Virus record (IMG/VR): IMGVR_UViG_3300009656_000002
Direction: 5' to 3' (one strand)
From: a virus
DNA: 51,248 bases
In this document: piece by piece, positions 3,769-21,894 of the stretch
How the letters are laid out: each line of letters opens with the position of its first letter
How positions within the stretch are numbered: position 1 is the first letter of the stretch
Translations under genes and position numbers: made by a program
Notes under the pieces: generated by a model
The model's database searches: none
What the model saw: the letters and a program-made list of their open reading frames with translations, nothing else
What the model was told of the DNA's origin: nothing

Positions 3769-3838
3769 GCGACCTCCTCAAGGTCCAGGGGCTCGGGCGC
3801 GGGGACTATCTCGTCCACGTCCCGGCAGGAGTCCGGCC

Positions 3839-4302: not shown

Positions 4303-4866
4303 ATGGCGGGACGCGGAAAAGGCAACGAAGCACAGAAACGTGCGGAGATAGCCGGCCGGAGAGCAATCGTGGCCGAAGAGTACCGCAAGAAGAAAACCAC
4401 CCGGCAGATCGCCGAAATGCTCGGGTGCGACCACACCACGGTCGTCCGGGACGTCAAAGCCATTATCGCGGAACGCCGGAAGCACGCCCAGATCGATATA
4501 GAGGACGCGCTCGCCAACGAGATCGCCGGCCAGAACGCCTCGGAGGCGAACCTTCTGGCGATCGCCGAAGACGAGGAGCAAACCCCCGCGACCCGGATCG
4601 CCGCGGAGGCCGCTCTCGTCCGGGTCCGGGGCGAACGCGCGAAGCTCCAGGGCCTCTATGCCGCGCAACGGGTCGAATTGACCGGGAAGGACGGCGGGAC
4701 CATTGACGTCCGAAACTATCACGCCGAGCTCGCTTCGGTCCTCGATAAGGTCTTTACCGCCGGAGCTCCGCCGGCCGTTCATGGAGAGCCTGAGCCCTCA
4801 GGCGGCGAAGAGGCTGGCGACGGATTGGGAGATCCTCTTAGCGAGGGACAACCAGCTCCCACCTGA
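4303..4866 (+). CDS. terS: Terminase small subunit
   Basis: HTH QIAEMLGCDHTTVVRDV; C-terminal RVELTGKDGG motif; directly upstream of and overlapping terL. Confidence 0.8.
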   Translation: MAGRGKGNEAQKRAEIAGRRAIVAEEYRKKKTTRQIAEMLGCDHTTVVRDVKAIIAERRKHAQIDIEDALANEIAGQNASEANLLAIAEDEEQTPATRIAAEAALVRVRGERAKLQGLYAAQRVELTGKDGGTIDVRNYHAELASVLDKVFTAGAPPAVHGEPEPSGGEEAGDGLGDPLSEGQPAPT

Positions 4867-6484
4867 AGGCGACTGGACCAAGTGGCTTTTACTTTCTGGG
4901 AGAGGAAGCGGGAAGGCCCTCGCGCTCGACACGCCCCTCCCGACTCCCGGCGGATGGACGACCATGGGGGAGGTCCGGCCCGGGGCCCGCCTCTTCGACG
5001 AGACCGGCGCCCCGTGCACCGTTACGGCCGTGCACGAGGTCCAATTCGGCCGGCCGTGCTACCGGGTGGTCTTCGATGACGGATCGGCCATAGTCGCCGA
5101 CGCGGGGCACCTCTGGCGCACAACGGCGCGCGCCACGGGCCCGGCCACGGTCACGACCGATGAGATCCGCGCCACCCTCACCCACGGGCCCCGCGGCGAC
5201 TTCAACCACTCCATAGACGGCCCGGGAGACCTCTGCCGCGCGATCGTCGCCGTCGAGCCCGTCGCGTCCGTCCCCGTGCGCTGTATCGTGGTGGACTCGC
5301 CCTCGCACCTCTTCCTCGCCGGCCGCTTCATGGTCCCGACCCATAACAGCCGCGCGGGGGCCGAGTGGGTGATCAAGACGGCCCGCAATAACCCCGGGTG
5401 CCGGATCGCCATGGTCGCCAGGACCGCGGCCGACGTGCGCGACGTCATGATCGAAGGCGACTCGGGGATCATGAACATCAGCCCCGCCGACTTCACGCCC
5501 CGCTACCGGCCGAGCATCCGCCGGCTGGAGTGGCCGAACGGGAGCCAGGCCACCCTCTTCAGCGCCGAGGAGCCCGACGCGCTCCGGGGCCCCCAGCATC
5601 ATTTCGGGTGGTTGGACGAGATCGCGGCGTGGTCCCACCCCGAGGCTTTTGAAATGTTCCTCTTCGGCCTCCGGCTCGGCACTCACCCCCGGGTCGTGAT
5701 CACAACGACCCCGCGGCCGACGAAGATCATCAAGGATCTCATCGCCGACCCCACCTGTGTCACCGTCCGGGGCTCGACCTACGAGAACCGGGCCAACCTC
5801 GCGCCCGCCTACTTCTCCCAGATCATCCGGAAATACGAGGGGACACGCCTGGGGCGCCAGGAGATCAACGGCGAGATATTGGACGACAACCCCGGGGCCC
5901 TCTGGACCCGGGCCATCATCGACGCCAACCGGGTATCGGCCCTCCCCGAGCTCGTCCGGATCGTCGTCGGCGTCGACCCCGAAGCGTCCAGCGGAGAGGA
6001 GTCCGCCGAGACCGGGATCCTCGTCGTGGGACTCGGTGCCGACGGCCACGGGTACGTCCTCGACGACGTGACGATCCGCGGGACGCCCGGGGAGTGGGGC
6101 GCGCAAGCCGTGAGCGCCTATTCCCGGTGGGAGGCGAACAAGGTCGTGGGCGAGGTCAACAACGGCGGCGAGATGGTTGGGTATGTGGTCGGGACGTGCG
6201 CGAACGCGGCCAACGTCTTTGTACCGTACCGGGCCGTCCGGGCGTCCCATAGCAAAGAAGCCCGCGCCGACCCCGTGAGCGCCCTGTATGCTCAAGGGCT
6301 CGTCCATCACGTCGGCGTCTTCGCCGAGCTCGAAGATCAAATGACAGAGTGGGTACCGGGCCAGGGTATGCGGTCGCCGGATCGTGTCGACGCCCTGGTG
6401 TGGGCCATAACGGACCTGATGCTCGACATTGAATACGAGGCCACGGTCTATGACGAGGTGCCCGCTCCATTGACCTCCTGGTAA
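4703..6484 (+). CDS. terL: Terminase large subunit (Terminase_6 type) with intein
   Basis: Walker A GRGSGK/S, LRGPQ, Walker B WLDE, nuclease VGVDP and DRVDALVW. Confidence 0.95.
   Translation: MTSETITPSSLRSSIRSLPPELRRPFMESLSPQAAKRLATDWEILLARDNQLPPEGDWTKWLLLSGRGSGKALALDTPLPTPGGWTTMGEVRPGARLFDETGAPCTVTAVHEVQFGRPCYRVVFDDGSAIVADAGHLWRTTARATGPATVTTDEIRATLTHGPRGDFNHSIDGPGDLCRAIVAVEPVASVPVRCIVVDSPSHLFLAGRFMVPTHNSRAGAEWVIKTARNNPGCRIAMVARTAADVRDVMIEGDSGIMNISPADFTPRYRPSIRRLEWPNGSQATLFSAEEPDALRGPQHHFGWLDEIAAWSHPEAFEMFLFGLRLGTHPRVVITTTPRPTKIIKDLIADPTCVTVRGSTYENRANLAPAYFSQIIRKYEGTRLGRQEINGEILDDNPGALWTRAIIDANRVSALPELVRIVVGVDPEASSGEESAETGILVVGLGADGHGYVLDDVTIRGTPGEWGAQAVSAYSRWEANKVVGEVNNGGEMVGYVVGTCANAANVFVPYRAVRASHSKEARADPVSALYAQGLVHHVGVFAELEDQMTEWVPGQGMRSPDRVDALVWAITDLMLDIEYEATVYDEVPAPLTSW
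4916..5347 (+). mobile_element. Class-3 mini-intein (144 aa, no homing endonuclease) in the TerL Walker A motif
   Basis: Starts Ala (ALALDTPLPTP); block B HLW, block F VRC, block G PTHN followed by Ser +1; removal restores GRGSGKS. Confidence 0.9.
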
Positions 6485-6541
6485 AGCAAAACTCTTATCT
6501 CCCGCGCGACTGAGCATTTACCAAATCAGCGGAGGGTGTAG

Positions 6542-6922
6542 ATGGGAGGTAACGGAGCATCGAGCAAGGGGGCCGGGGGCGGGGCAACCGTCCCCGTGAC
6601 ATCGAAGCGGTTTTACACGATGCCGGCGCGCGACATGCCGGCCGAGACTGCGACCGTTGCCGGGCGCAAGCTCGCCGCACAAAACGGGTTCGTTGATTAC
6701 AACTACCGCGGGATCATCCTGCGGCGAAAGACGGACGGGAGCTACATCGCTCCGCTCTATTACGACCAGCTCAAGTGGCTGAGTCGGTACGGCTACCCCA
6801 AGAAGGGCGGGGGGCCGGCGACCGTGAAGGCGATGGAATCAACGATCGATAAGGCCCTGGCGAACGCCGAGAAGGCCCTGAAGAAGGCGGCGGACGCCCG
6901 GAAGAGGAAGAAGGCGACGTAG
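6542..6922 (+). CDS. Basic protein with MGGNGASSKGAG leader
   Basis: Leader shared at DNA level with 9017; Lys/Arg-rich C-terminus; abuts DUF4417. Confidence 0.75.
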   Translation: MGGNGASSKGAGGGATVPVTSKRFYTMPARDMPAETATVAGRKLAAQNGFVDYNYRGIILRRKTDGSYIAPLYYDQLKWLSRYGYPKKGGGPATVKAMESTIDKALANAEKALKKAADARKRKKAT

Positions 6923-7690
6923 ATGGGCGCCGGCTATGCCATGCGGAACTGCGTGAAGCCGTGCGGGTCGCTCGACACCCAGAACACCCGGCTTTTGGAC
7001 TTCGTCGACGTCACGAACGACTCGGAAATGCCGATCATCCACGACACCCTCCTGAGTCCGCCGGCCGAGATCATGATCTGGGAGGGCCGGCCCCGGCTCT
7101 ATGCGGGGAAGTTCGTCCACCTCTACACGGAGGATTATCGATTTGAACAACTCTGGCGCCGGCCGGAGTTTTATTTACCCAAGATCCAGGCGTTCGCCGG
7201 GATATTCTCGCCCGACTTCTCCCTCTTCCGCGACTGGAATATCCACGTCCAGCGGAATAACGTCTACCGTTCGCGCCTCCTCGGCGCCTACTGGCAAGCG
7301 AACGGGATCCCCGTGATCCCGATCGTCTCGTGGGCCGGGCCCAAGACGTATTCGTTCTGTTTCGACGGGATCCCCGAGGGGTCCATGGTCGCGGTCTCGA
7401 CCGTCGGCGTCCACCGCGAGCGCGAGGCGCGGGCGATGTTCAAGGCGGGGCTCAAGGAGATGCTCGACCGGATCCACCCGCGGGCCGTCATATGCTACGG
7501 GAGAATCGAGAAGCTCCTCGGGGAGGTGCCGGAGCACTTCTACCCCTACAAGCCCGACCTCGTCGCGAAGGTCTCGCCCCTCTACGAATATGTCCGGAAG
7601 GACGCCCGGCTCATCCCCCAGGACGGGCCCCTCGTGCACCTGGAGACGCCGGACGGGCCCCGGCGGGAGCTCGTGGAGGCGCTCGCGTGA
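6923..7690 (+). CDS. DUF4417 domain protein
   Basis: HLYTEDYRFE, SPDFS, YRSRLLGAYWQ.NGIPVIP.VSW, FCFDG and VAVSTVG motifs. Confidence 0.85.
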   Translation: MGAGYAMRNCVKPCGSLDTQNTRLLDFVDVTNDSEMPIIHDTLLSPPAEIMIWEGRPRLYAGKFVHLYTEDYRFEQLWRRPEFYLPKIQAFAGIFSPDFSLFRDWNIHVQRNNVYRSRLLGAYWQANGIPVIPIVSWAGPKTYSFCFDGIPEGSMVAVSTVGVHREREARAMFKAGLKEMLDRIHPRAVICYGRIEKLLGEVPEHFYPYKPDLVAKVSPLYEYVRKDARLIPQDGPLVHLETPDGPRRELVEALA

Positions 7691-7869
7691 GCCGGCCCCG
7701 TGAGGCCGTGGTGGAGCCCCTGGGGCGCCTCGTGCTCCGGCCCGATAAGAAGGCCAACGGGGCCGCGTGCGATATGTGCGACCGATGCTTCGAGAAGGTC
7801 AACGTGGTCCGGGTCGACGGCGACGCGGTCCTCATGTGCGACCTCTGCCTCTCGTTCGCGCTCTATTGA
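7687..7869 (+). CDS. Zinc-ribbon protein (paralog of 8701 and 10265)
   Basis: CDMC...VNVVRVDGDAVLMCDLC. Confidence 0.6.
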   Translation: MSRPREAVVEPLGRLVLRPDKKANGAACDMCDRCFEKVNVVRVDGDAVLMCDLCLSFALY

Positions 7870-7926
7870 AAACAAAATCAAAACCTTTTTCTCTCTGACT
7901 ACCATATGGTAGTCGGTGACAACTGA
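7870..7926 (+). promoter_or_regulatory. Promoter/operator with perfect 18-bp palindrome and GGTGA RBS
   Basis: A-rich and T-rich tracts, then GACTACCATATGGTAGTC at 7897-7914. Confidence 0.65.
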
Positions 7927-8268
7927 ATGACCATCACCGACAACCACGCCGCGCGGGTCGAGCTCGCGCGCGCCGCGGTCGAGGCCGCGGAGGCCCGGCT
8001 CGGCCGCCTGGAGGCCGTGCGCGAGCATGGGGCCCCCGACCCGACGATCGCGGCGGAGATCGAGCTCGCCGAGCGCGACCTGGCGGAGAAGCGCCGGGCC
8101 CTGGATGCAACCGAGGACGCGCTCTCGCGCGAGTGGTGCGGGACGTGCGCCGACTTCGCGCCCGAGCGCCTCCCGGGAAAGGAGACGAACCTCTATGTCG
8201 GGACGTGCCGGCACACGGGCGATCCGACCTCCTGGAGCCAGCGGTGCGGGTGCTGGAGGCGCGCCTGA
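7927..8268 (+). CDS. Coiled-coil protein with C-terminal Cys cluster
   Basis: Helical N-terminus; C..C...C.H...C..W C-terminus. Confidence 0.65.
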   Translation: MTITDNHAARVELARAAVEAAEARLGRLEAVREHGAPDPTIAAEIELAERDLAEKRRALDATEDALSREWCGTCADFAPERLPGKETNLYVGTCRHTGDPTSWSQRCGCWRRA

Positions 8269-8708
8269 TGGCCCGCAAATTCCCGTCCGGCCACTACGAC
8301 ACCCCGCTCGGCGAGTACGTGAACACCACGACCGGGAAGGCCGTGTACGCGCTCGCCGACCGTTCGGGCCGGTGGTGCGTCCGCGGGCCCGTGCTCGCGC
8401 ACCGCACCGGCAAATGCGACACGGTCCCCGAGGCGATCGCGAAGGCGAAGGCCGCCCTGGAGGTCTCGCACACGGCCGACCGGAAGGCCGGCAACGGGCC
8501 CGGCCCGATCGCCTGGCGGGAGGGGGCTCCATCGGTCCCCGGGCACCGGCACGGCCGGGAGGTCCGTATGACCGACGACTACTGCTCCCACCGGGGCCCC
8601 ATGCCCGGGTGCGGGTGCGGCCGGTGGTGCAACGCGCGCCGCGTCCCCCTCTCGGCGGGCCCGTGCGATCCGAACTGCGAATACCGCACGGCCGCCCGGG
8701 GTGGTTAA
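8268..8708 (+). CDS. Hypothetical protein with Cys-rich C-terminus
   Basis: TGATG-coupled start at 8268. Confidence 0.55.
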   Translation: MARKFPSGHYDTPLGEYVNTTTGKAVYALADRSGRWCVRGPVLAHRTGKCDTVPEAIAKAKAALEVSHTADRKAGNGPGPIAWREGAPSVPGHRHGREVRMTDDYCSHRGPMPGCGCGRWCNARRVPLSAGPCDPNCEYRTAARGG

Positions 8709-9027
8709 GACGGCCGTATGCCCGATATGTGGACACCGATGGGTCGCCCGGTCGACGGCCCCCTGGCTGACGTGCTCACGGTGCCAGCGGAAGCATAAGC
8801 GGGGGGACGTGGCGCCCCGGGCCCTCGGGCTGGCGGTCGTCTATCCCGGCCGCGCCCGGTGCCAGGTCTGCGACGAGCTCGCGGAGGCCCTCGCGCCGGC
8901 CGCGGTCGGGGACGAGCCCGTGCTCGCGTGCGCCCGGTGCGTCGGAGCCCCGGACAAATGTGGAAATGTTGATATGCGGACCAGAGAAAAGAGAACACAA
9001 CCAGGCGGTGACAAACATGGGAGGTAA
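8701..9027 (+). CDS. Double zinc-ribbon protein
   Basis: CPICGHRW...LTCSRC...CQVC...CARC. Confidence 0.65.
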   Translation: MVKTAVCPICGHRWVARSTAPWLTCSRCQRKHKRGDVAPRALGLAVVYPGRARCQVCDELAEALAPAAVGDEPVLACARCVGAPDKCGNVDMRTREKRTQPGGDKHGR

Positions 9028-9388
9028 CGGAGCATCAAGCAAGGGGGCCGGGTCGGCACCCGCGAAGAACGCGGCGATCGCGCCCGCGGACGATCTGGAG
9101 CGCCTCAAAGCGATCGGAAAAGAGTGGACCGGCGGGGGAAACCATCGGATCTACTTCAACGATCTCCGGTCGCTCTACGGCCTCGATGCAACCTATTACG
9201 GGACGGGCAACATCTCGTCGGCGTCTATCGACGGCGTGGCTATCAGCAATAGCAAAGCCAGGGCGCTCGCCACGGATCTCCAATTCGGAAAGGTCTGGTA
9301 CGACGTGAAGACAAAAACCTTCAATCAGAAGGGGTTGTCGGATAGTGTATTCGAGCGCATCGTGAAGGCAATCCGCCGGAGGGCGTGA
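9017..9388 (+). CDS. Protein with MGGNGASSKGAG leader
   Basis: 36-bp leader nearly identical to 6542-6577; GGTGA RBS. Confidence 0.75.
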   Translation: MGGNGASSKGAGSAPAKNAAIAPADDLERLKAIGKEWTGGGNHRIYFNDLRSLYGLDATYYGTGNISSASIDGVAISNSKARALATDLQFGKVWYDVKTKTFNQKGLSDSVFERIVKAIRRRA

Positions 9389-9391
9389 TCC

Positions 9392-9862
9392 ATGGGTGGA
9401 AGTGGGGCGTCCTCGCGGCCGGCACCCAACCGGACCACATACCCCGACCCGGTCGCGGGCCAGGCGATCGTCGGCGAGACGTACGACGGCGTAACGTACC
9501 GCATGACCCGGAACGACCTCAAGAAGTCCGTCCCGGAAGACGAGCGCCTCAAGGCCGCCGCGGAAGCCCTCGCCGCACTCGACGCCGAGAAGGCCCGCCT
9601 GGGGAGGAAATACCCCTTGCGAAAGCGCGAACTCGCCCGGCAACAGCTCATGAGCTCGGTCGACTACCGCCTTGGCCTCGGCCAGGGCAAGCTCGACCGC
9701 ATCCGGGGCGTGTCGTACACCGAAGCCAGAACGACCTCGGCGTATAACATGGGCTATCACGAGGGGTGGAACGACAACCCGAGCCACTGGAAGCAGCAGA
9801 GGGCCACAAACCCGAACTTTTGGGCCCACGACAACAAAAAGCCGGTGCGGAAGCGGCGGTAA
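9392..9862 (+). CDS. Basic protein with MGGSGASS leader
   Basis: Leader variant; Lys/Arg-rich C-terminus. Confidence 0.7.
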   Translation: MGGSGASSRPAPNRTTYPDPVAGQAIVGETYDGVTYRMTRNDLKKSVPEDERLKAAAEALAALDAEKARLGRKYPLRKRELARQQLMSSVDYRLGLGQGKLDRIRGVSYTEARTTSAYNMGYHEGWNDNPSHWKQQRATNPNFWAHDNKKPVRKRR

Positions 9863-9897
9863 CATTTTTAAATCAAGACTACCAACGGTAGTCTTGT
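9863..9897 (+). promoter_or_regulatory. Archaeal TATA box plus operator palindrome (leaderless promoter)
   Basis: TTTTTAAAT about 30 bp upstream of ATG 9898; CAAGACTACC-AAC-GGTAGTCTTG at 9874-9896. Confidence 0.7.
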
Positions 9898-10260
9898 ATG
9901 CGACTCGAATATCAACTCCCAAGCGGGGCATGGTACGCCTGTGGCGACCGCACCGACGAGTTCCTGGATATGTGTGTCCGGTTCGGAAACCTCCCCGACC
10001 GCGCCACCGTTCTCGCGACACTGGCCAACGGATACAAGGTCCGGAACGATCCGAACGACTGGTATTCGTTCTGCCGCGACGGCGAGGCCGCCGACGCGCT
10101 CGAAGCGCGGGCCCGGGCGCAACGGGAGGCACACGAGCGCGATCAAGAGGCCCGGCACGGGCCGGTCCTCAACTGCCGGTCCTGTGGCCAGAGCGGGCGC
10201 TCGGGAAACTACCCCTTCTCGACCAACCCGGGATCGGGCTACTGCGACGATTGCCGGTGA
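9898..10260 (+). CDS. Hypothetical protein with C-terminal zinc finger
   Basis: CRSCG...YCDDC. Confidence 0.65.
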   Translation: MRLEYQLPSGAWYACGDRTDEFLDMCVRFGNLPDRATVLATLANGYKVRNDPNDWYSFCRDGEAADALEARARAQREAHERDQEARHGPVLNCRSCGQSGRSGNYPFSTNPGSGYCDDCR

Positions 10261-10643: not shown

Positions 10644-13157
10644 ATGGCCGCCCGCGTCTCCAACCGGGTGATCGCCGAACGGATCGATGAATTAGAAACG
10701 TTTATCGAGGATTCACTCACCGAGGCCGTCTCGGCGAACGCCTCGTGGAAAGACCCCCTCACCCTCACCCTCGCGCTCGGCGACGGCGAGGACGAGTATT
10801 CAGTGGATCAGATCCGCGAGGCCGCGCGGAATTGTTACGAGGCGTACCACGCGAACGCCCTCATCCGCCGGGCCGTCAACGTCAAGAGCCACTTCGTCTG
10901 GGGCCGGGGCGTCACCATCACCTCGGACCAGGTAGAGGTCAACGCGGTCCTCACCGACTGGCTCGAACGAAACCAGGGAGAGCTCGGCCACCTGGGGCGG
11001 GTCGAGAAGGAGATCCAGGTCCAGATCGGCGGCAATTTATTCTTACTCTGCCAGGTCGACGAGCTCGGCGCCGTGGAGGTCGTGACCGTCCCGATCAGCG
11101 AGATCGCCGGCTACCTCCGCGACCCGAAAAACCCGCGGAAGGTCTGGTACTGGAAACGGACGTTTACGGAGTACACGGTCCAGAAGGACGGCACGAGTAC
11201 GGGAAAGAGCCAAACCTACTGGTATCCGGCGCTCGGGCATAATCCCGAAAAGCAACCGAAGACGATCGGGGGGACGCCCGTCGTCTGGACCGACCGGCTC
11301 TACCACGCGCCCCTCCCGCGCGCGGGAAAGGGCGTGTACGGCCTCCCGGCGATCGTGGCGGGGATCCCGTGGGGCAAAGCCTACACGCAACACCTGAGCA
11401 ACGTGGCGAGCATCAACGCGGCCCTCGCGACCTTCGCGTGGAAAGCGACCGGGGCGAACCCGGCCGCGGCCCGCGCCGTCGCGGACATCGTCGACCGCCA
11501 GAAGAGGACGCCGATCCCGGCCGGGTCCACGCTCGCCTCGACCCCCGGGGTCACCATGGAGCCGATCCGGACGGCCGGGGTCGCCACGAGCGCGGACGAG
11601 GCCCGCCGCTTCGCGCTCATGGTGTGCTCCGACACGGACGTCCCCGAGCATATCCTCCTCGGGGATCCCAGTACGGGGAACCTCGCGACCACGAAGACGA
11701 TGGAGCGCCCCCTGGAGCTCGCCGTGCTCGACCGTCAGGCGTGGTGGGTCGATACCCTCACCCTCCTGGGGTCGTTCGCGGTCGAGGCCCGGGTGCTCGC
11801 GCAAGGCTTCGCCCCGCTCACCGGCAAGGTCGAGTTCGACGACTGGGGCCGGCGCCAGGTGCTCGTCTCCGTCCGCCGGGTCGTGAAGGACCACGAGACG
11901 GATCGCGAGGTCACGGAAGCCCGGGCCGCGAAGGCCGCGCCCGGCACGAAGGCGACGAAGAAGGAGGCCGCCGACGCGAACCTCGGGCCCGTCCGGGAAG
12001 AGGTCGCCGAGGTCACGGTCGAGTTCCCCGCGATCCTCGAACACGACCCGGTCTCGGAGGTCGCCGCCATCATCAGCGCCGCGACCGCCGGCACGGGGTC
12101 GCTCGCCGGGATCATGGACCGGGCCACCTTCCAGCGGTTGCTTTTGCGGGCCCTCAACATCCCGAACGTGGACGACGCGATCGCCGAGATGGACGACGAG
12201 GACATCGCCCGCCAGGTCGAGAGGCATGAGAACCCGCCCGAGCTGGAGCTCGCCCGCCAGGCCCAGGCCGCGAAGCTCGGCGGGGAGGAGCCCGACGAGG
12301 ACGACGAGGACGCGCCGCCGGCGAAGAAGGGCGTGAAGAAGCCGACGAAGCGCTCCCGGGACAACGACGTCGAAGAAGGGATCGAAGAGTCGCTCTCGGC
12401 CGTCGCGACCGCGCTCCAGGAGGTCGCCCGGACGGCCCTGGTGGAGGCGGAGCTCGCCGAAGCCTTCGATCCCACGGCCCCGGGGAAGTGGGTCACCCTG
12501 AAGGACGGCCGGCGGGTCTACATTAAGGACAAGGGGGCCGGCACGGGCCCGATGGGCCCCGGGACCGCCCAGTCGACGCTCGGGGCGGAACCGGCACCGG
12601 CACCGGAGCAACTGGCACCCGGGCCCGTCGACGAGCGCGGCCGGCCGGCCGCCGTGCGGAAACGGCTCGACGAGTTCACCGAATGGCACGCCGAGGACCG
12701 GGTCGAGAGCCTCCTCGTCGTGGCCCCCGACGGCTCGACCGTCTTCTACGGGACCGGGGACGTGCGAGGCGTCCCGTTCGACCCCGAGGACGCGGCGAAG
12801 TTCCCGGGATGCACGGCGATCCACAACCACCCGAGCGACAATTCCTTTTCGGATAAGGATCTCGCGATGACCGTAACGCACGGGATCGCCGAGCACGTCG
12901 TCGTCTCGCCGAAGTACGTCTTCTCCCTCGACACAACGGCGTACTCCGATCACGACGCGCACCTGGCCCTTGCCCGGCACGCGGTCGCCGAGGGCTCCCT
13001 GTATGCGAAATATCGCCCGAAGGTCCGGTCTGGAGAGATGGGCGAGAAAGAGGCGAGCAATGAGCACACACACGAGACCATGCAGATCGTGGCGTCCGAG
13101 TATCCCGGGATTCACTACACCCGGTGGATCCGCGGAAAGGGGATGGGGATACGATGA
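10644..13157 (+). CDS. Portal protein with C-terminal WxTxxG motif and JAB/MPN-like domain
   Basis: First large structural gene after terL; portal-like N-terminal about 510 aa (NALIRRAVNV, GGNLF, YGLP); acidic linker; KWVTLKDGRRVYI; E...HNHPSDNSFSDKD. Confidence 0.75.
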   Translation: MAARVSNRVIAERIDELETFIEDSLTEAVSANASWKDPLTLTLALGDGEDEYSVDQIREAARNCYEAYHANALIRRAVNVKSHFVWGRGVTITSDQVEVNAVLTDWLERNQGELGHLGRVEKEIQVQIGGNLFLLCQVDELGAVEVVTVPISEIAGYLRDPKNPRKVWYWKRTFTEYTVQKDGTSTGKSQTYWYPALGHNPEKQPKTIGGTPVVWTDRLYHAPLPRAGKGVYGLPAIVAGIPWGKAYTQHLSNVASINAALATFAWKATGANPAAARAVADIVDRQKRTPIPAGSTLASTPGVTMEPIRTAGVATSADEARRFALMVCSDTDVPEHILLGDPSTGNLATTKTMERPLELAVLDRQAWWVDTLTLLGSFAVEARVLAQGFAPLTGKVEFDDWGRRQVLVSVRRVVKDHETDREVTEARAAKAAPGTKATKKEAADANLGPVREEVAEVTVEFPAILEHDPVSEVAAIISAATAGTGSLAGIMDRATFQRLLLRALNIPNVDDAIAEMDDEDIARQVERHENPPELELARQAQAAKLGGEEPDEDDEDAPPAKKGVKKPTKRSRDNDVEEGIEESLSAVATALQEVARTALVEAELAEAFDPTAPGKWVTLKDGRRVYIKDKGAGTGPMGPGTAQSTLGAEPAPAPEQLAPGPVDERGRPAAVRKRLDEFTEWHAEDRVESLLVVAPDGSTVFYGTGDVRGVPFDPEDAAKFPGCTAIHNHPSDNSFSDKDLAMTVTHGIAEHVVVSPKYVFSLDTTAYSDHDAHLALARHAVAEGSLYAKYRPKVRSGEMGEKEASNEHTHETMQIVASEYPGIHYTRWIRGKGMGIR

Positions 13158-14383
13158 TCGGGATTGACGACTCGGCACACGAGCACCTGTATTACTCCCC
13201 GGTGTGCGCCCATTGCCGGCACCTGGACGAGACCACGCGGTTCAAGTGCGCCGCGTTCCCCGACGGGATCCCGTTCGCCATCTGGGACGGCGAGAACAAG
13301 CACACCTCGCCCGTCGACGGCGACCACGGGATCCGGTTCGAGCCCCTCGCGGCCATCGCGGAGGAGGTCGACAACCTCGACACCTTCCGCCTTCCGCGCA
13401 AAAAGGCGAAGGCGAAGACCAAGACCCGGGACACCTACGGGGCCCCGGGCCACTGGGTCACCATCCACGGCCGGCACGTCTTCATAACCGATGAGCCGAA
13501 CAACCCCGACCGCCCGTACGGGATCCCGTCGGAGCACCCCGGGCTCAAGGATATGCCCGATTGGCCCGAGGGCGAATCGGTCTTCGACCACAAAGTCCCG
13601 GTCCCGAAGGGCCTGGCCGAAGCGAAGACGACCGCCGACCTCGAAGCCTGGTACAAGGAGAATTACGAGGACTTCAAGATGGAGTTCGACGGGGCCGACT
13701 TCGAGACCGCCAAACAGACGGCGATCACGTATAACGAGCTCGCCACGCGGTATTACGACCTCGGTGTCAATGTGAGCCGGGTGACCGTCGACGACTGGAT
13801 GGACGAGAACGTGTACGCCGCGTATGAGAACGGGAAGATCTACCTGAACGGAAAGGCGTGGAAGGATCCCGTTGGGCTCGCCGAGTCCGTACGCAAGAAC
13901 GAGGCAACCGGCTTCCACCCCAAGGGCGTGACCGATCCCCAGTCGATCCTCGTCCACGAATACGGGCACGCCGTTATGGACGCGGTGAGCAAGGACCGCG
14001 CGACCACGACCTTCACGGGCTACACCCGCGCAAGCTCTCTTGCGGATCAATATGCGCGCCCGCCCCGTGAGGGGACCGTCGACGCCGCCATGCTTGAGTA
14101 TTACCGGAGCTCCGACTCACGGGCCGCCATTTCGGAGTACGCCGTCAAGGGGCGCTCCATCGACGAGGAGACATGGGCCGAGGGCTTCGTCGCGATCCAT
14201 TACGGCGCCCCGGCGAGCGCGCTCCCGCGCGTGAAGATGCAACGGAATATCATCGAGATCCTGACCGAGTCGCGCCAGAAGGATCTACCGTGGCCGGTCG
14301 CCGTCGAAACGCTCCCCGAGAAGAAGCGCAAAAAGGCCGAGGCGGAGCTCGACGCCGTGCTGAGGAGGCTGAGGGACGTATGA
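13154..14383 (+). CDS. Modular cargo protein: Cys/His CxAFPDGIP domain + WxTxxG motif + zincin metallopeptidase
   Basis: CAHCRH..CAAFPDGIP..GDHGIRFEP; HWVTIHGRHVFI; HEYGH..ISEYA..EETWAEGF. Confidence 0.75.
   Translation: MIGIDDSAHEHLYYSPVCAHCRHLDETTRFKCAAFPDGIPFAIWDGENKHTSPVDGDHGIRFEPLAAIAEEVDNLDTFRLPRKKAKAKTKTRDTYGAPGHWVTIHGRHVFITDEPNNPDRPYGIPSEHPGLKDMPDWPEGESVFDHKVPVPKGLAEAKTTADLEAWYKENYEDFKMEFDGADFETAKQTAITYNELATRYYDLGVNVSRVTVDDWMDENVYAAYENGKIYLNGKAWKDPVGLAESVRKNEATGFHPKGVTDPQSILVHEYGHAVMDAVSKDRATTTFTGYTRASSLADQYARPPREGTVDAAMLEYYRSSDSRAAISEYAVKGRSIDEETWAEGFVAIHYGAPASALPRVKMQRNIIEILTESRQKDLPWPVAVETLPEKKRKKAEAELDAVLRRLRDV
13317..13359 (+). repeat. 43-bp exact direct repeat, copy 1
   Basis: acggcgaccacgggatccggttcgagcccctcgcggccatcgc, identical to 14525-14567. 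Confidence 0.95.
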
Positions 14384-15447
14384 CCTACACCAGGGCGCCG
14401 GCCTGTATGGAGTGCCGGCATTACGAGCGCGGGACGGACGACCCGGTCCCGCGGTGCGCCGCGTATCCCGACGGGATCCCGGACGCCATCTTCTTCGACG
14501 GCAACCCGCACACGGCCGCCAGGAACGGCGACCACGGGATCCGGTTCGAGCCCCTCGCGGCCATCGCCGAGGCCGAAGCCTATCCCGGGACGGAGTGGAG
14601 AACGATAAACGGCCGGCGCGTCTGCATATCCGGAGATTGCCCCAAGGGGACGCGGATCGAAGACCTGCCGGGAGAGAAGGCCGGGGCCGGTTCGTTGGAC
14701 GATCGGCGGTACCTCGATGACAACGAGAAGGACATGTACCTGGGGGTCGACAAGCGATACGATCGCGACAAGAAAAAATACTATGTCCTCAAGTCGGACG
14801 AGGAGGAGAAGCGGCAGCGGGATCAAAAGGACCGCGAACACCGCGAGGAGCGGGCCCGGCTCGAACGGGAGGCGAAAGAGAAGGATCCGGGCGCGTTTTC
14901 AGTGGTGGTCGGGAAGACGACGGTCCCGGGCGCCGTGTACAGGGTGGACTACCCGCTCGGCAAAAACTTGCACTGCGCATATTTCGACAAAGACGGAAAC
15001 CATATCGATACCGACATTGGAAAGGCAACGCCCGACGAGATCGCCCAGTGGAGCGCCCGCGCGAAAGAGGTCGTCGCGACCACCGCGAAGATCGGGATCG
15101 ACCCCGCCGAGGATCTCTATGTCCGGTACGGCCGGATCCCCAAGGGCGGGCGCTCGCTCAATCACGCCACGCGGGAACTGGAGAAAGGCACGTCGGTCTA
15201 TTCGGGCAAGTTCGACCCCGAGACGGGGTTATTCGACATCGCCGACACGCTCGGCACCGGGCAATTCCAGGTACTCGAAGCGGCGGGAAAGACCCCGTAC
15301 CTCGTCCGCGGTGAGAAGATCGGCACCGGGTCCGACGGCGAGCCCGTGCTCAAGGACGCCTATGCCACCCACCAACTGAAGGTCACCGCGGACGGCCTCG
15401 CCATCGTCAAGCGTCTCAGGCGGCCACGGAAGACAGGCGGGGGCTGA
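14380..15447 (+). CDS. Modular cargo protein: Cys/His domain + WxTxxG motif + unknown effector (possibly ART-like)
   Basis: CMECRH..CAAYPDGIP..GDHGIRFEP; EWRTINGRRVCI; YVRYG..GTSVY in the C-terminal part. Confidence 0.7.
   Translation: MTYTRAPACMECRHYERGTDDPVPRCAAYPDGIPDAIFFDGNPHTAARNGDHGIRFEPLAAIAEAEAYPGTEWRTINGRRVCISGDCPKGTRIEDLPGEKAGAGSLDDRRYLDDNEKDMYLGVDKRYDRDKKKYYVLKSDEEEKRQRDQKDREHREERARLEREAKEKDPGAFSVVVGKTTVPGAVYRVDYPLGKNLHCAYFDKDGNHIDTDIGKATPDEIAQWSARAKEVVATTAKIGIDPAEDLYVRYGRIPKGGRSLNHATRELEKGTSVYSGKFDPETGLFDIADTLGTGQFQVLEAAGKTPYLVRGEKIGTGSDGEPVLKDAYATHQLKVTADGLAIVKRLRRPRKTGGG
14525..14567 (+). repeat. 43-bp exact direct repeat, copy 2
   Basis: Identical to 13317-13359. Confidence 0.95.
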
Positions 15448-15449
15448 CC

Positions 15450-15674
15450 GTGCCGCCCCGGTGCGAGGACTGCCGCTTCGCCGCCATTGAGGACGCGAAG
15501 CTCGGGACCGGCGACTGCCGCCGGCACCCGCCCTGGCCCGGGAGGGGCTACCCCTGTGTCTCGCGCGATCAATGGTGCGGGGAGTTCCGGCCGCGCGACT
15601 CTCCGGCCGTCGTGCCGATCACGCCCCGGCCGATCAGGTTGAACCTCGTGGACCTCCGGGGGCGGAAGGTGTGA
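15450..15674 (+). CDS. Small Cys-rich protein
   Basis: CEDCRF...GDCRRHPP...WCGEF. Confidence 0.65.
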   Translation: MPPRCEDCRFAAIEDAKLGTGDCRRHPPWPGRGYPCVSRDQWCGEFRPRDSPAVVPITPRPIRLNLVDLRGRKV

Positions 15675-16633
15675 CAGCGCGGATCATCTGCGGCGACGCG
15701 CTCACGGCCCTCTGCGACCTTCCCGACCAGTCGGTTAATACCTGTGTCACCTCGCCCCCGTACTGGGGGCTGAGGGACTATGGCGTCGACGGACAGATCG
15801 GTCTCGAAGAGACGCCGGAGGCGTACGTCTCCCGGCTCGTCGAGGTCTTCCGCGAGGTGCGGCGGGTGCTCGCCGACGACGGGACGCTCTGGCTGAACCT
15901 CGGCGATTCGTACAACGCGGCGGGGCGGGCCGGACACGGGACACGGATCGGCTACAAGCAAGGGACCAACCGGGCGAGCGCGAACGGCTCCGACGCGAAC
16001 CGACCAACGGCACCGGAGTTAAAAGAAAAAGACCTCGTCGGCATCCCGTGGCGCGTCGCGTTCGCGCTCCAGGCGGACGGGTGGTATCTCCGGCAGGACA
16101 TTATTTGGCACAAGCCGAACCCGATGCCGGAGAGCGTTCGCGACCGCTGCACGAAGGCACACGAATACCTCTTCCTCCTGAGCAAGTCACCGCGGTACTG
16201 GTTCGACCATGACGAGATGACAGAGGAGTCGGTCTATCCCCCCGGCACCCGGAAGGACGTTCCGAAAGGGGGCTTCAACTCGAAGTATGCCGGTGACGTT
16301 GCGCGGAAGGGCGACGAGTCTTTCCGGGCAATCCGCGAGAGGCGCAACCGCCGCGACGTGTGGACGGTCGCCACGAAGCCATACGCCGAAGCCCATTTCG
16401 CGACGTTCCCCCCAGACCTGATCCGGCCGTGCGTCCGCGCGGGATGCCCGGTCGGCGGCGTGGTCCTCGACCCGTTCGCCGGTGCCGGCACTACCGGACT
16501 GGTCGCGCTCGAAGAGGCGCGGAACTTCCTCGGGATCGAGCTCAATCCCGAGTACGTCGCGCTCATCGAAAAGAGACTCGCGCCCCTTCAGAGCATCGCC
16601 ACCCTCGACCAATTCACGGAGGCCGAAGCGTGA
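15671..16633 (+). CDS. DNA N4-cytosine/N6-adenine methyltransferase (beta class)
   Basis: Catalytic VTSPPY precedes SAM-binding DPFAGAGTT; IIWHKPNPMPES. Confidence 0.93.
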   Translation: MTARIICGDALTALCDLPDQSVNTCVTSPPYWGLRDYGVDGQIGLEETPEAYVSRLVEVFREVRRVLADDGTLWLNLGDSYNAAGRAGHGTRIGYKQGTNRASANGSDANRPTAPELKEKDLVGIPWRVAFALQADGWYLRQDIIWHKPNPMPESVRDRCTKAHEYLFLLSKSPRYWFDHDEMTEESVYPPGTRKDVPKGGFNSKYAGDVARKGDESFRAIRERRNRRDVWTVATKPYAEAHFATFPPDLIRPCVRAGCPVGGVVLDPFAGAGTTGLVALEEARNFLGIELNPEYVALIEKRLAPLQSIATLDQFTEAEA

Positions 16634-17532
16634 CCCTCGCCCTCGCGGAGGCCGCGGCCGAAGCCCTCGTCCGGGTCGAGGTGGCCCGGCGCGAGCTCTT
16701 CCTCGCCCCGCTCCGGTCGCGCATGGCCCGGGTGGCCGGCGTGCACTTCGATAATCAGAAGACCGTCCTGGAGCGAAAACTCCGCGAACGGGGCGCACAC
16801 CTCAACGAGTCCGTCTGTCGCGAGGGGCTCGGGGACGCCGTCGCGGGGCTCATGATCACGATCTTCGACGAGTTCGCGGTCGATACGGCCGACGCCATGC
16901 GCGAGATCCTGATGATGGCCATGGAGGGCGCCATCAAGCACCGGCTCCTCGATTTTGGGTACGCCATGAGCTTCTCCCTTCGCAACCCGGCGGCCCAGAG
17001 ATACCTCAAGACCTACTGTCTCAACGAGATCAAGAAGATCGACGCCACGACCCTGAAGATCATGAAGGGGATCGTCTATCAAGGGCTCTATGAGGGCGCC
17101 TCTTACACGGAGATCGCGGCCCGCATGGTTTCGAGATATGCCGCGTTCGGCACCCCGGTCCCCCAGCATCACCTCCGCAACCGGGCCGAGCTCATCGCCA
17201 CGTACGAGACCGCCACCGCCTACGAGGCCGCGGGCCGCGAGGTCGCGGACACCATCGCGAAGAAGGGGATCCCCATTGAGAAGTCGTCGATCACCGTGGG
17301 AGACGACCGGGTCGACGCTGAATGTCTGGCAAAGGAGGCGCAGAAGTGGATCCCCCTCGACCAACCCTTCACAACCCACCTTCAGAAGGACAACGTCGAG
17401 CACCAGCGCTCTCCTTTCCACATCGCGTGCCGGTGTACTACGATTTACCGGGTGGCAACGAAACGGGCCCGGGAGATGCTCGCCCGGTCCCCGAACCCGG
17501 CACCCGTCGAATTTTACGCTATCATTAAATAG
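16630..17532 (+). CDS. MuF/SPP1 gp7-like head morphogenesis protein
   Basis: RAELIATYET, GDDRV..EC and H..CRC motifs. Confidence 0.8.
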   Translation: MTLALAEAAAEALVRVEVARRELFLAPLRSRMARVAGVHFDNQKTVLERKLRERGAHLNESVCREGLGDAVAGLMITIFDEFAVDTADAMREILMMAMEGAIKHRLLDFGYAMSFSLRNPAAQRYLKTYCLNEIKKIDATTLKIMKGIVYQGLYEGASYTEIAARMVSRYAAFGTPVPQHHLRNRAELIATYETATAYEAAGREVADTIAKKGIPIEKSSITVGDDRVDAECLAKEAQKWIPLDQPFTTHLQKDNVEHQRSPFHIACRCTTIYRVATKRAREMLARSPNPAPVEFYAIIK

Positions 17533-20877: not shown

Positions 20878-21894
20878 ATGAAATCGCCAGGTGGTGACGG
20901 CCCGGGAGTCCTGATTCAGGAGGACTTTCAGCCCCTCGTCGAAGCCGAGATCGCGGCGGACGGAACCATCCCTGTCTGCGTGATTAAAGCCGGCTGGTCG
21001 AAGAACAAGCGCTATTATTCAGAGAGCGTTCTGACGCGCGCGGCCTCCATCTACCGGAAGGGGACGCACATGCTCTGGAACCACCCCGGGCCGAACGCAT
21101 TACGCGAACAACCCGGCGGCGACTTGAACGCGATCGCGTCTGTTCTGAGTGAAGAAGCGCACTTCGACCCCGTCGGCCCGATCAATCCGAAGACGGGAAA
21201 ACCCAACGGAGCGGGCCTCTATGCCCGGGCCCGGTTGATCTCCACGTATCGCGACCGTATCCTGGAGCTCGCCGAGACCATCGGCCTCTCGCACCGCGTC
21301 CGCGGCCGGGAGGTCGCCGGGACGGCCGAGGGGAGGACGGGGAAGATCGTCGAGGAGATCTACGACCCGGCGAAGTACGGGCTCCCGCCCGTGACCGTCG
21401 ACTGGGTCGCGAGGCCCGCCGCGGGCGGGTCGGTCCTCGTCGAAGAGGAGGAGATGCACATGGTAGACGAAGAGATCACGAACTTTGAGGAGGCGATCGC
21501 CGAGCGCGACGCCCGGATCACGACCCTGGAGGAGGCTCACGCCGCCGCCGAGGCCACGATCGCCGAGCACATGACCACGATCGCCGGCTTCCGCGCGCGG
21601 GAGATCCTCGCCGAGAGCATCGCCGCCGCGAAGCTCGACGAGGCCGTGGAGGCCCGCGTCCGCGCCCTCGTTGCGGGGACGGCCCTGCCGATGACCGACG
21701 ACCACGCCCTCGACGAGGCCGCCTATACGGCCGCCGTCTCGGAGACCATCGAGGCCGAGAAGAGCTACGCCGCGACCATCGCGGAGGCCGCACGCGCCGC
21801 GCCCGTCGGCGTCCCCGGCGGGTCCGGGTCGACCGGCGCCGTCAGCGACTTCCTGGACCGCACCGGCGGGATCCGGGCCCCGCGGAGGGGATAG
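20878..21894 (+). CDS. Prohead protease/scaffold
   Basis: WNHP and IGLS motifs, VDWVARPAAGG; Ala/Glu coiled-coil C-terminus; upstream of capsid genes. Confidence 0.75.
   Translation: MKSPGGDGPGVLIQEDFQPLVEAEIAADGTIPVCVIKAGWSKNKRYYSESVLTRAASIYRKGTHMLWNHPGPNALREQPGGDLNAIASVLSEEAHFDPVGPINPKTGKPNGAGLYARARLISTYRDRILELAETIGLSHRVRGREVAGTAEGRTGKIVEEIYDPAKYGLPPVTVDWVARPAAGGSVLVEEEEMHMVDEEITNFEEAIAERDARITTLEEAHAAAEATIAEHMTTIAGFRAREILAESIAAAKLDEAVEARVRALVAGTALPMTDDHALDEAAYTAAVSETIEAEKSYAATIAEAARAAPVGVPGGSGSTGAVSDFLDRTGGIRAPRRG

Follow-up and report, generated by a model that had tools for sequence, protein, structure and literature searches.

What kind of locus lies behind the portal gene of the virus recorded in IMG/VR as IMGVR_UViG_3300009656_000002, where three successive genes share one short peptide motif and each carries an unrelated domain after it? 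The window is the whole stretch of 51,248 nt that was analysed, and an initial annotation, made from its letters, had described these genes as a chain of recombining effector cassettes attached to the portal of an archaeal virus. Comparison with near-identical viruses shows that homologous recombination adds, removes and swaps units of this array at three short joints, which flank a beta-hairpin. The locus probably serves a tailed virus (~51 kb) of a Methanomicrobiales methanogen as a hypervariable array of cargo genes, which begins where the portal naturally ends and is bounded on the other side by the genes for Cys74, a small Cys-rich protein, and for MuF. Polyvalent proteins, portal- or MuF-fused effectors and MuF toxins are already known; what is new is an archaeal (methanogen) virus with such an array, its split and chained architecture, direct cassette turnover with mapped joints and two uncatalogued modules.

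Cassette turnover behind the portal

Each unit of the array consists of a carrier, an acidic patch with a beta-hairpin header, a Gly/Pro-rich linker and an effector domain. The first carrier is the portal, and later carriers are a Cys3His domain (CysHis) or, in relatives, N2, a short helical module whose second half copies the last helix of the portal. In the window the units are spread over three genes coupled through ATGA overlaps at 13154-13157 and 14380-14383, with the motif in 3/3, as had been described. Their parts, and the gene that closes the array, are given below (L numbers denote related loci; AF2, AlphaFold2; pLDDT, predicted local distance difference test; JAB, zincin and X are the effector domains of the window).

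10644-13157, + strand: P0001, portal with its extension, 837 aa
10644-12443, + strand: portal proper, residues 1-600 of P0001 (phrog_10963, E=2.9e-60, residues 50-556)
12414-12488, + strand: pre-hairpin helix and acidic segment, recombination joint 1 (comparison of the window with L017)
12489-12524, + strand: hairpin header 1, WVTLKDGRRVYI (regular-expression match; of the motif class of headers 2 and 3)
12525-12605, + strand: Gly/Pro-rich linker after header 1, KDKGAGTGPMGPGTAQSTLGAEPAPAPEQLAPGP, found also in the N2~JAB gene of L017 and the N2~zincin gene of L014
12606-13154, + strand: JAB/MPN+-like extension of the portal (phrog_5057; signature residues E, 12705; HNHP, 12822-12833; S, 12849; D, 12858)
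13154-14383, + strand: P0002 (gene 2), 409 aa
13154-13363, + strand: Cys3His zinc-type domain, copy 1, N-terminus of gene 2 (phrog_33375, E=2.6e-5; AF2 pLDDT 82-97 with alignment)
13317-13359, + strand: 43-bp exact repeat, copy 1, recombination joint 2 (DNA identity)
13454-13486, + strand: hairpin header 2, WVTIHGRHVFI (AF2 strands at residues 100-104 and 107-111, pLDDT ~71)
13529-14380, + strand: lethal-factor/M34-like gluzincin (phrog_7153; HEYGH, 13955-13969; Glu as third ligand, 14168-14170)
14380-15447, + strand: P0003 (gene 3), 355 aa
14380-14577, + strand: Cys3His zinc-type domain, copy 2, N-terminus of gene 3 (phrog_33375, E=1.6e-4; C at 14404, 14413 and 14455, H at 14509)
14525-14567, + strand: 43-bp exact repeat, copy 2 (DNA identity)
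14596-14628, + strand: hairpin header 3, WRTINGRRVCI (AF2 strands at residues 72-76 and 79-84, pLDDT 73-79)
14629-14679, + strand: post-hairpin linker, recombination joint 3 (comparison with L004, L017 and L019)
14680-15444, + strand: effector domain X of gene 3, without family match
15450-15674, + strand: Cys74, constant right border of the array, kept after it in L004, L017 and L019

P0001 is a portal with a 240-residue extension, and its portal is 33% identical to that of Methanoculleus virus L4768/Blf4. The ends of the bare portals of relatives coincide with the position of ..ALQEVARTALVEA in P0001. All portals that are 47-50% identical lack an extension (536-559 aa), and the gene that comes next is Cys74-like; in Methanoculleus virus L4768 the portal is also bare, and MuF follows it directly. 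A Cys74-type gene, with the pattern ..C..C....GxCR..PPWP...WC.E(W/F), stands directly 3' of the bare portal in two relatives of 50% identity, L309 (7668-7862) and L310 (7608-8009). Fused portals of at least 96% identity come in three forms of 837, 856 and 816 aa. Although portals are 96-100% identical, the arrays behind them differ in number (2 to 4 effector domains), order and content, as set out here (~ joins modules of one polypeptide and ‖ marks a gene border; ART, ADP-ribosyltransferase; MTase, methyltransferase).

Window, L020 and L021: Portal~JAB ‖ CysHis~zincin ‖ CysHis~X ‖ Cys74 ‖ MTase ‖ MuF
L004-L013 (18 contigs from ENA, JGI and Logan, several studies): Portal~JAB ‖ CysHis~ART ‖ 44-aa stub ‖ Cys74 ‖ MuF
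L017: Portal~ART' ‖ N2~JAB ‖ CysHis~zincin ‖ CysHis~ART ‖ stub ‖ Cys74 ‖ MTase
L014/L015: ..ART' ‖ N2~zincin' (38% identical) ‖ CysHis..
L019 (portal 96% identical): Portal~JAB2 ‖ CysHis~Y~N2C~JAB3 ‖ CysHis~ART ‖ stub ‖ Cys74 ‖ other gene ‖ MuF
L022: Portal~ART'' ‖ N2''

The form found in the window recurs in L020 and L021, which come from independent assemblies. The effector pool of the lineage comprises several JAB/MPN+-like domains, the lethal-factor/M34-like gluzincin, Alt/VIP2-type ADP-ribosyltransferases and the unknown domains X (window) and Y (L019), and any carrier (portal, N2 or CysHis) can bear any effector. The ART of relatives belongs to PF03496 (the score of P0007 equals the 23.4-bit cut-off, and the portal fusion of L017 reaches 35.3 bits), and the window itself has no ART. 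The modular chain proposed in the initial annotation was checked against the possibility of an invariant arrangement in relatives, and the opposite was found. In the 515-aa gene of L019 (12448-13992), one hairpin lies between CysHis and domain Y, and another separates the N2 part that comes after Y (its second half) from a third variant of JAB.

At joint 1, the window and L017 are 99% identical up to 12451, with the common codons ..GAGGCGGA.., after which the window continues as the N2~JAB gene of L017; the window is thus L017 minus 922 bp (ART' and the first half of N2), with the crossover in the codons of the pre-hairpin helix. At joint 2, L004 and gene 2 are identical as far as the end of the 43-bp repeat, beyond which L004 follows gene 3. 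At joint 3, L004, L017 and L019 are ~94% identical to gene 3 up to ..IEDLPGE/G (~14674) and then continue into ART, so that this gene-3-type junction is kept for ~25 codons past the hairpin, beyond which X and ART are wholly divergent. Recombination had been placed at the conserved motifs themselves; the joints, now mapped at base level, flank the motif and do not lie inside it, and one crossover falls exactly in the 43-bp repeat. This repeat ends the Cys/His domain common to genes 2 and 3, as noted initially (both copies match phrog_33375, and 13317-13359 equals 14525-14567). The 71 nt upstream of it are only 70% identical between the copies, and a perfect run of 43 nt is therefore unexpected from divergence alone (0.7^43 ~2e-7).

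The hairpin header and the Cys3His domain in other viruses

The pattern W.T.{2,3}G..V.I has three matches only in all six frames of the window (12489, 13454 and 14596), against a chance expectation from amino-acid frequencies of 0.0014 in the three proteins and 0.087 over all frames. AF2 predicts the motif as a beta-hairpin with a helix before it and a disordered linker after it. IMG/VR was searched with a DNA pattern for W-V-T-I-x-G-x-H-[VI]-x-I with third positions free, which header 2 matches, and the pattern occurs in more than 118 stretches at the least, compared with ~5 by chance (a hand estimate from information content and an assumed collection size). In 80 listed loci, 91/91 matches have common flanks, in the order Asp/Glu-rich segment, Gly, hairpin, x-[DE]-x-G and Gly/Lys-rich linker, on contigs with a GC content of 0.28-0.69. 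The header lies near the start of 200-500-aa proteins, or at 400-900 in long ones. Among 58 non-redundant carriers, 18 have one of four Pfam portal families and 3 have MuF; others have ART, histidine phosphatase, Nudix, 2H/LigT, SNF2/DEAD helicase, Zeta toxin, Kinase-PolyVal or lytic transglycosylase domains, and no Pfam model is common to all 58. In L047, whose portal is 32% identical, a 1079-aa gene reads Portal~hairpin~ART~hairpin~zincin and is followed by a free CysHis gene.

The GC range, the common flanks and the variety of carriers together point to protein-level selection on the header, which appears, from these sequences, to mark module starts in polyvalent-type head proteins. The presence of the motif in the three genes is confirmed, but it is a general module header of phage polyvalent proteins and is not locus-specific. 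Comparison of the motif, the Cys/His domain and the cassettes over related viral contigs, the means initially envisaged for examining the chain, found widespread headers, differing cassette number and order and a crossover at the 43-bp repeat. An alternative would be that motif and repeat are DNA-level recombination sites left by recent duplications and have no protein function, since the perfect repeat and the DNA similarity of the motifs (81-89% over 19-31 nt) mark or flank crossovers. This is highly improbable, given that the amino-acid motif is kept at GC 0.28 to 0.69 and on four portal families with third positions free in the pattern, that it is predicted as a hairpin with pLDDT above its flanks, and that the joints lie beside it. 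The W-x-T-x-x-D-x-R-V motif of MuF domains has the same spacing as the header, and a relation between the two is conceivable.

The two Cys3His copies in genes 2 and 3 are ~57% identical in protein, their phrog_33375 match covers positions 6-57 of the 72-position profile, and three Cys and one His are invariant in the family alignment. A profile search returned 7,328 clusters (1,255 at E<=1e-10), mainly proteins of 55-110 aa or tandem copies; the gene-3 copy had no match by tblastn against GenBank phages, and the profile had none among PDB sequences. Neither the hairpin header nor the Cys3His partner was found in Pfam or in the main text of PMC5512222, and both are widespread modules absent from Pfam, NCBIfam and the literature searched.

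In IMG/VR loci, the CysHis gene lies directly behind, and often overlaps, a large gene that ends in a zincin of the same family or in a JAB domain. An HExxH or JAB motif is present in 42/56 upstream neighbours compared with 17/260 other open reading frames (ORFs) of >=200 aa in the same loci, which are related to unknown degrees and not fully independent (odds ratio 43, Fisher p=1.6e-26). Pfam matches among 48 non-redundant upstream proteins include MuF (19), ART (6), ATLF (3), portal families (~4) and Peptidase_Mx (2). Single chains also occur, namely MuF-JAB-CysHis-CysHis in P0011, which occupies the canonical slot between portal and protease, and zincin-CysHis-CysHis in P0026 and P0118. Within the lineage of the window, each JAB or zincin is followed by CysHis and each ART by N2 or the 44-aa stub; N2, stub and Cys74 have no relatives outside this lineage among the fetched loci. 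The neighbourhoods, the fusions and the lineage pattern all fit the earlier suggestion that the Cys/His domain is the partner of the upstream effector, and on balance such sequence comparisons favour, though modestly, a partnership with the preceding metallopeptidase-type domain, in which CysHis may be a candidate immunity protein, latency factor or tether. In L084, a low-GC IMG/VR contig, CysHis heads a 1395-aa protein (6001-10185) with weak GNAT acetyltransferase matches below Pfam cut-offs; the gene directly follows one for a 1041-aa ART and zincin protein and represents a second lineage with CysHis fused to further cargo.

Small ORFs follow 89% of MuF toxin genes and have been read as immunity genes (Jamet et al. 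2017, PMC5576092), and CysHis would be a member of this class that is paired with metallopeptidase-type domains. A junction motif, recombination and archaea are all absent from the text of PMC5576092. As in these polymorphic toxins of temperate phages, the lineage of the window has variable C-terminal ART or metallopeptidase domains in a portal-adjacent position and a small partner ORF (the 44-aa stub after ART in relatives; CysHis as a free small gene in other phages). Unlike in MuF toxins, the MuF protein of the window (16630-17532) has 300 aa, matches PF04233 only and is effector-free, the carriers being the portal and CysHis in the window and N2 in relatives. The array could accordingly be read as a toxin-immunity locus of the MuF type, in which C-terminal toxins would serve competition between viruses or host strains, CysHis and N2 would confer immunity on the producing or lysogenic cell, and their fusion to the next effector would be a recombination accident without any tether. 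The layout is indeed that of polymorphic toxins, with C-terminal domains that vary after a conserved junction and a small partner encoded downstream; L004, L017 and L019 have a free N2-like stub of 44 aa after the terminal ART, and CysHis is elsewhere mainly a free small gene. However, both CysHis and N2 form one polypeptide with the effector that follows, and in P0011, P0026 and P0118 a CysHis comes after a peptidase domain within one chain, which is unusual for immunity proteins. The effector set (ART, JAB and zincin; elsewhere Nudix, 2H and helicases) is moreover that of host-takeover polyvalent proteins, and no integrase or lysogeny module was found among the scanned ORFs of the window. 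A toxin-immunity locus is therefore considered unlikely, and is not mutually exclusive with a cargo role.

Effector domains and their possible delivery

The domains that follow the three motifs had been described as unrelated to one another, which is borne out by a JAB-like signature, a lethal-factor-like HExxH zincin and domain X, unmatched in the libraries. The portal-fused domain has the catalytic signature E...H-x-H...S-x-x-D of JAB/MPN+ metalloenzymes, and E48, H87, N88, H89, P90, S96 and D99 are invariant in an alignment of 12 diverse sequences (the portal extension and eleven relatives). In an ESM Atlas structure search it superposes on C-terminal domains of MuF, Phage_portal_3 and min_cap2 proteins (template modelling score 0.75-0.81). 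Comparison with host Prok-JAB proteins by hhalign places the four motif elements in register with a weak E=0.017, Prok-JAB and RadC clusters appear only at scores of 0.80-0.81 in an Atlas feature search, and the profile of the domain has no match in Pfam or among PDB sequences.

In the gluzincin of gene 2, H143, E144, H147 and E214 are invariant in the family alignment, which has the signature IS.YA...E.FAE.F. Its profile matches the catalytic domain of anthrax lethal factor (E=1.6e-9, 41 bits) over the ~85-residue catalytic core and Zmp1/Pro-Pro endopeptidase weakly (E about 0.2-0.3). Like these M34 gluzincins the window zincin has HExxH and a downstream Glu, but only the catalytic core is matched, the receptor-binding and other domains of the toxins are missing, and the window protein is part of a virus head module. 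The presence in the chain of a zincin-like metallopeptidase with HExxH and a downstream Glu is as expected for a processing peptidase of polyvalent proteins; it does not match the polyvalent-protein zincin family, because it has no Pfam match whatsoever.

Domain X has relatives behind the same hairpin in P0009 (40% identity), in the portal fusion of L260 (43%) and in L294 (44%), with no match in Pfam, PHROG or NCBIfam and no usable match in the ESM Atlas. P0001-P0003 returned nothing in Pfam or NCBIfam. The AF2 model of P0003 from the single sequence is poor (pLDDT 45.7), with the hairpin and one helix (~140-160) highest, and that of P0002 with a 94-row alignment has a confident Cys/His domain and a predicted template modelling score (pTM) of 0.34 for the whole. 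A Foldseek search of predicted structure against the PDB gave nothing at E<=0.001, and a wide structure search by VIA-align gave helical-hairpin matches only (Z<=5.5, residues 321-379). In domain Y of L019, a segment ..NQEGRHRAEAL.. recalls ParB/Srx-type motifs, with no Pfam match.

The C-terminus of portal proteins faces the interior of the capsid, and a portal-fused domain would therefore be capsid cargo, as has been proposed for the portal and MuF fusions of phages (PMC5512222). The first effector would thus lie inside the capsid through its fusion, and the whole set would be cargo that enters the next cell with the DNA. The array may be a polyvalent protein split into translationally coupled genes, whose other products, being co-translated, would join the cargo, possibly by docking of CysHis on the preceding peptidase-type domain. 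With CysHis fused to the cargo behind it, each protein of the chain (n+1) could be docked onto its predecessor (n), in the order portal~JAB, CysHis~zincin and CysHis~X; alternatively or in addition, CysHis may keep the preceding peptidase latent. The hairpin might act as a protein-level module header, as a docking or processing mark, and the Pro-rich linkers, which would suit a Pro-directed enzyme, might be cleavage sites for the head protease or for the zincin with its likeness to lethal factor and Zmp1. That the locus encodes polyvalent-type cargo is considered quite likely, and a daisy-chain tether formed by CysHis is doubtful. Equally tentative is a wider proposal, in which CysHis binds the previous zincin or JAB to give a non-covalent daisy chain on the portal and the hairpin is a universal cargo loading and release mark, which would amount to an undescribed grammar of cargo loading, general among tailed viruses and either older than the split between bacteria and archaea or shared across it.

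Several points weigh against the cargo interpretation. The host link depends on a binned genome, JAB membership is suggested by the catalytic signature and weak profile evidence only, and the predicted model of gene 2 shows no confident inter-domain packing, as its low pTM indicates. The loci behind the CysHis neighbourhood count are partly related, and the linkage between effector and next module in the lineage represents few independent events and may partly reflect which blocks recombine. An inhibitor fused to cargo that is itself delivered would also seem counter-productive.

The same domains could instead be morphogenetic, the JAB and the zincin processing head or portal during assembly, with hairpin and acidic patch as a site for the head-maturation protease and the domains removed before or during packaging. 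The array does lie in the head module, adjoining MuF and the head-maturation protease gene (20878-21894), two of the three window domains are peptidase-like, and the headers stand at domain borders with Asp/Glu-rich patches before them. Assembly functions should nevertheless be conserved, whereas near-identical viruses swap the portal JAB for ART or lose the zincin, distant relatives with the same head genes lack any cassette, and proteins that bear the header elsewhere have ART, Nudix, 2H, kinase and helicase domains, which have no assembly role. A morphogenetic function is thus very unlikely.

The cargo interpretation has precedents. Reportedly, as described by Zhang and colleagues in 2012, polymorphic toxins carry pre-toxin junction motifs (VENN in CdiA, PxxxxDPxGL in Rhs, and PT-TG). 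Like the header, these are short peptides between a constant carrier and swappable C-terminal domains, with recombination around them; unlike them, the header is unrelated in sequence, stands before every module within the chain and is found on head proteins, not secreted toxins. In phage T4, the internal proteins and Alt, an ART, have an N-terminal capsid-targeting sequence that the prohead protease removes, and they are carried in the capsid and injected. This sequence, like the header, is a short peptide common to unrelated proteins, although capsid travel of the header is a proposal; the header differs in being often internal (400-900 of portal fusions) and in its unrelated sequence.

A close parallel is with phage polyvalent proteins, for which portal- and MuF-fused effectors and zincin processing have been proposed in bacteriophages (Iyer, Burroughs, Anand, de Souza, Aravind 2017, PMC5512222); polyvalent and portal/MuF-fused virion effectors are also treated in PMC9503650. 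The window likewise has effector-type domains (JAB-like, zincin) in the head module and fused to the portal, with ART in relatives, and the portal~JAB fusion, the zincin and X genes between portal and MuF and the terminase at 4703-6484 fit the layout of portal-fused virion effectors. A single polypeptide of the relative L047 combines portal, ART and zincin, and header carriers include Kinase-PolyVal, 2H, Nudix and helicase proteins. The window proteins have 2-3 modules each over three coupled genes, compared with 2 to 15 domains per polyvalent polypeptide, and L019 and L047 have more per chain. In contrast to phage polyvalent proteins, the host is archaeal, a group in which PMC5512222 states a paucity of such proteins, the chain is split into coupled genes that each open with the partner module of the preceding effector, and the lineage shows cassette turnover between near-identical genomes with mapped joints.

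Virion-delivered effectors are the first weapons of a virus on entry and are hardly known for archaeal viruses. Near-identical viruses of anaerobic digesters that differ only in their portal-hung enzymes form a natural experiment, and the rules by which cassettes are exchanged can be read directly from joints located at base level. If the proposed roles in loading, latency or release are true, cargo proteins would become recognisable in any tailed-virus genome, and many hypothetical small phage proteins would gain a name. The methanogen host is also of practical interest, as these viruses act on the methane-forming step of digesters.

Host and surroundings of the array

The window corresponds to contig C40 (50,742 bp, GC 67.4%) of a binned, metagenome-assembled genome (2.28 Mb, 67.8% GC), which has archaeal 16S and 23S rRNA and a McrA 93-94% identical to that of Methanomicrobiales assemblies and 88-90% to those of Methanoregulaceae and Methanosphaerula. 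Its CRISPR array, located where contig C17 ends and C79 begins, has a 29-nt repeat, GAGTTCCCCGTGTACGCGGGGATGAACCG, that resembles type I-E repeats. One spacer equals window 3783-3814 at 32/32 positions and matches L019 at 28/30 aligned positions, and a second has a 23/25 match at 16386-16410, inside the methyltransferase gene. A Methanomicrobiales methanogen is thus supported as host, and the initial designation as an archaeal virus is supported by the archaeal rRNA, the McrA and the 32/32 spacer match. A portal scan of genome contigs found nothing. Related contigs with a stated source come from anaerobic-digester, bioreactor or fermentation metagenomes, and the cultured Methanoculleus virus originates from biogas sludge.

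Nearly all genes of the window lie on the + strand, and they are viral. Those outside the array that bear on its position are the following.

4703-6484: terminase
15675-16618, + strand: N4/N6 DNA methyltransferase, an insertion polymorphism adjoining the array (PF01555, E=1.7e-51)
16630-17532, + strand: MuF-like head protein, short form without effector domain (PF04233, E=2.3e-8; 300 aa)
20878-21894: head-maturation protease (phrog_15531)
27749-32458: 1569-aa ORF, taken as tape measure on size alone

L017, L105 and L106 share the methyltransferase gene that separates Cys74 from MuF in the window, L004 lacks it, and L019 has an unrelated 239-aa ORF in its place; the L004 orthologue of the MuF-like protein also has 300 aa. 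Integration of the window as a provirus was considered and set aside, as no tRNA was found, the scanned ORFs near both contig ends are viral-looking and none of them is an integrase. Programmed frameshifting or read-through over the ATGA junctions was likewise set aside for lack of evidence, the in-frame fusions in L019 and L047 showing only that the fused state is viable.

In L032 and L040, the MuF-type proteins upstream of CysHis genes have Hint/intein and LAGLIDADG matches, so inteins appear to be present in such head-protein genes. In the terminase of the window, ~430-485 nt (4861-5344) are missing in L004, which is elsewhere 94-97% identical; the L004 terminase has 387 aa compared with the 593-aa ORF of the window, which fits a mini-intein.

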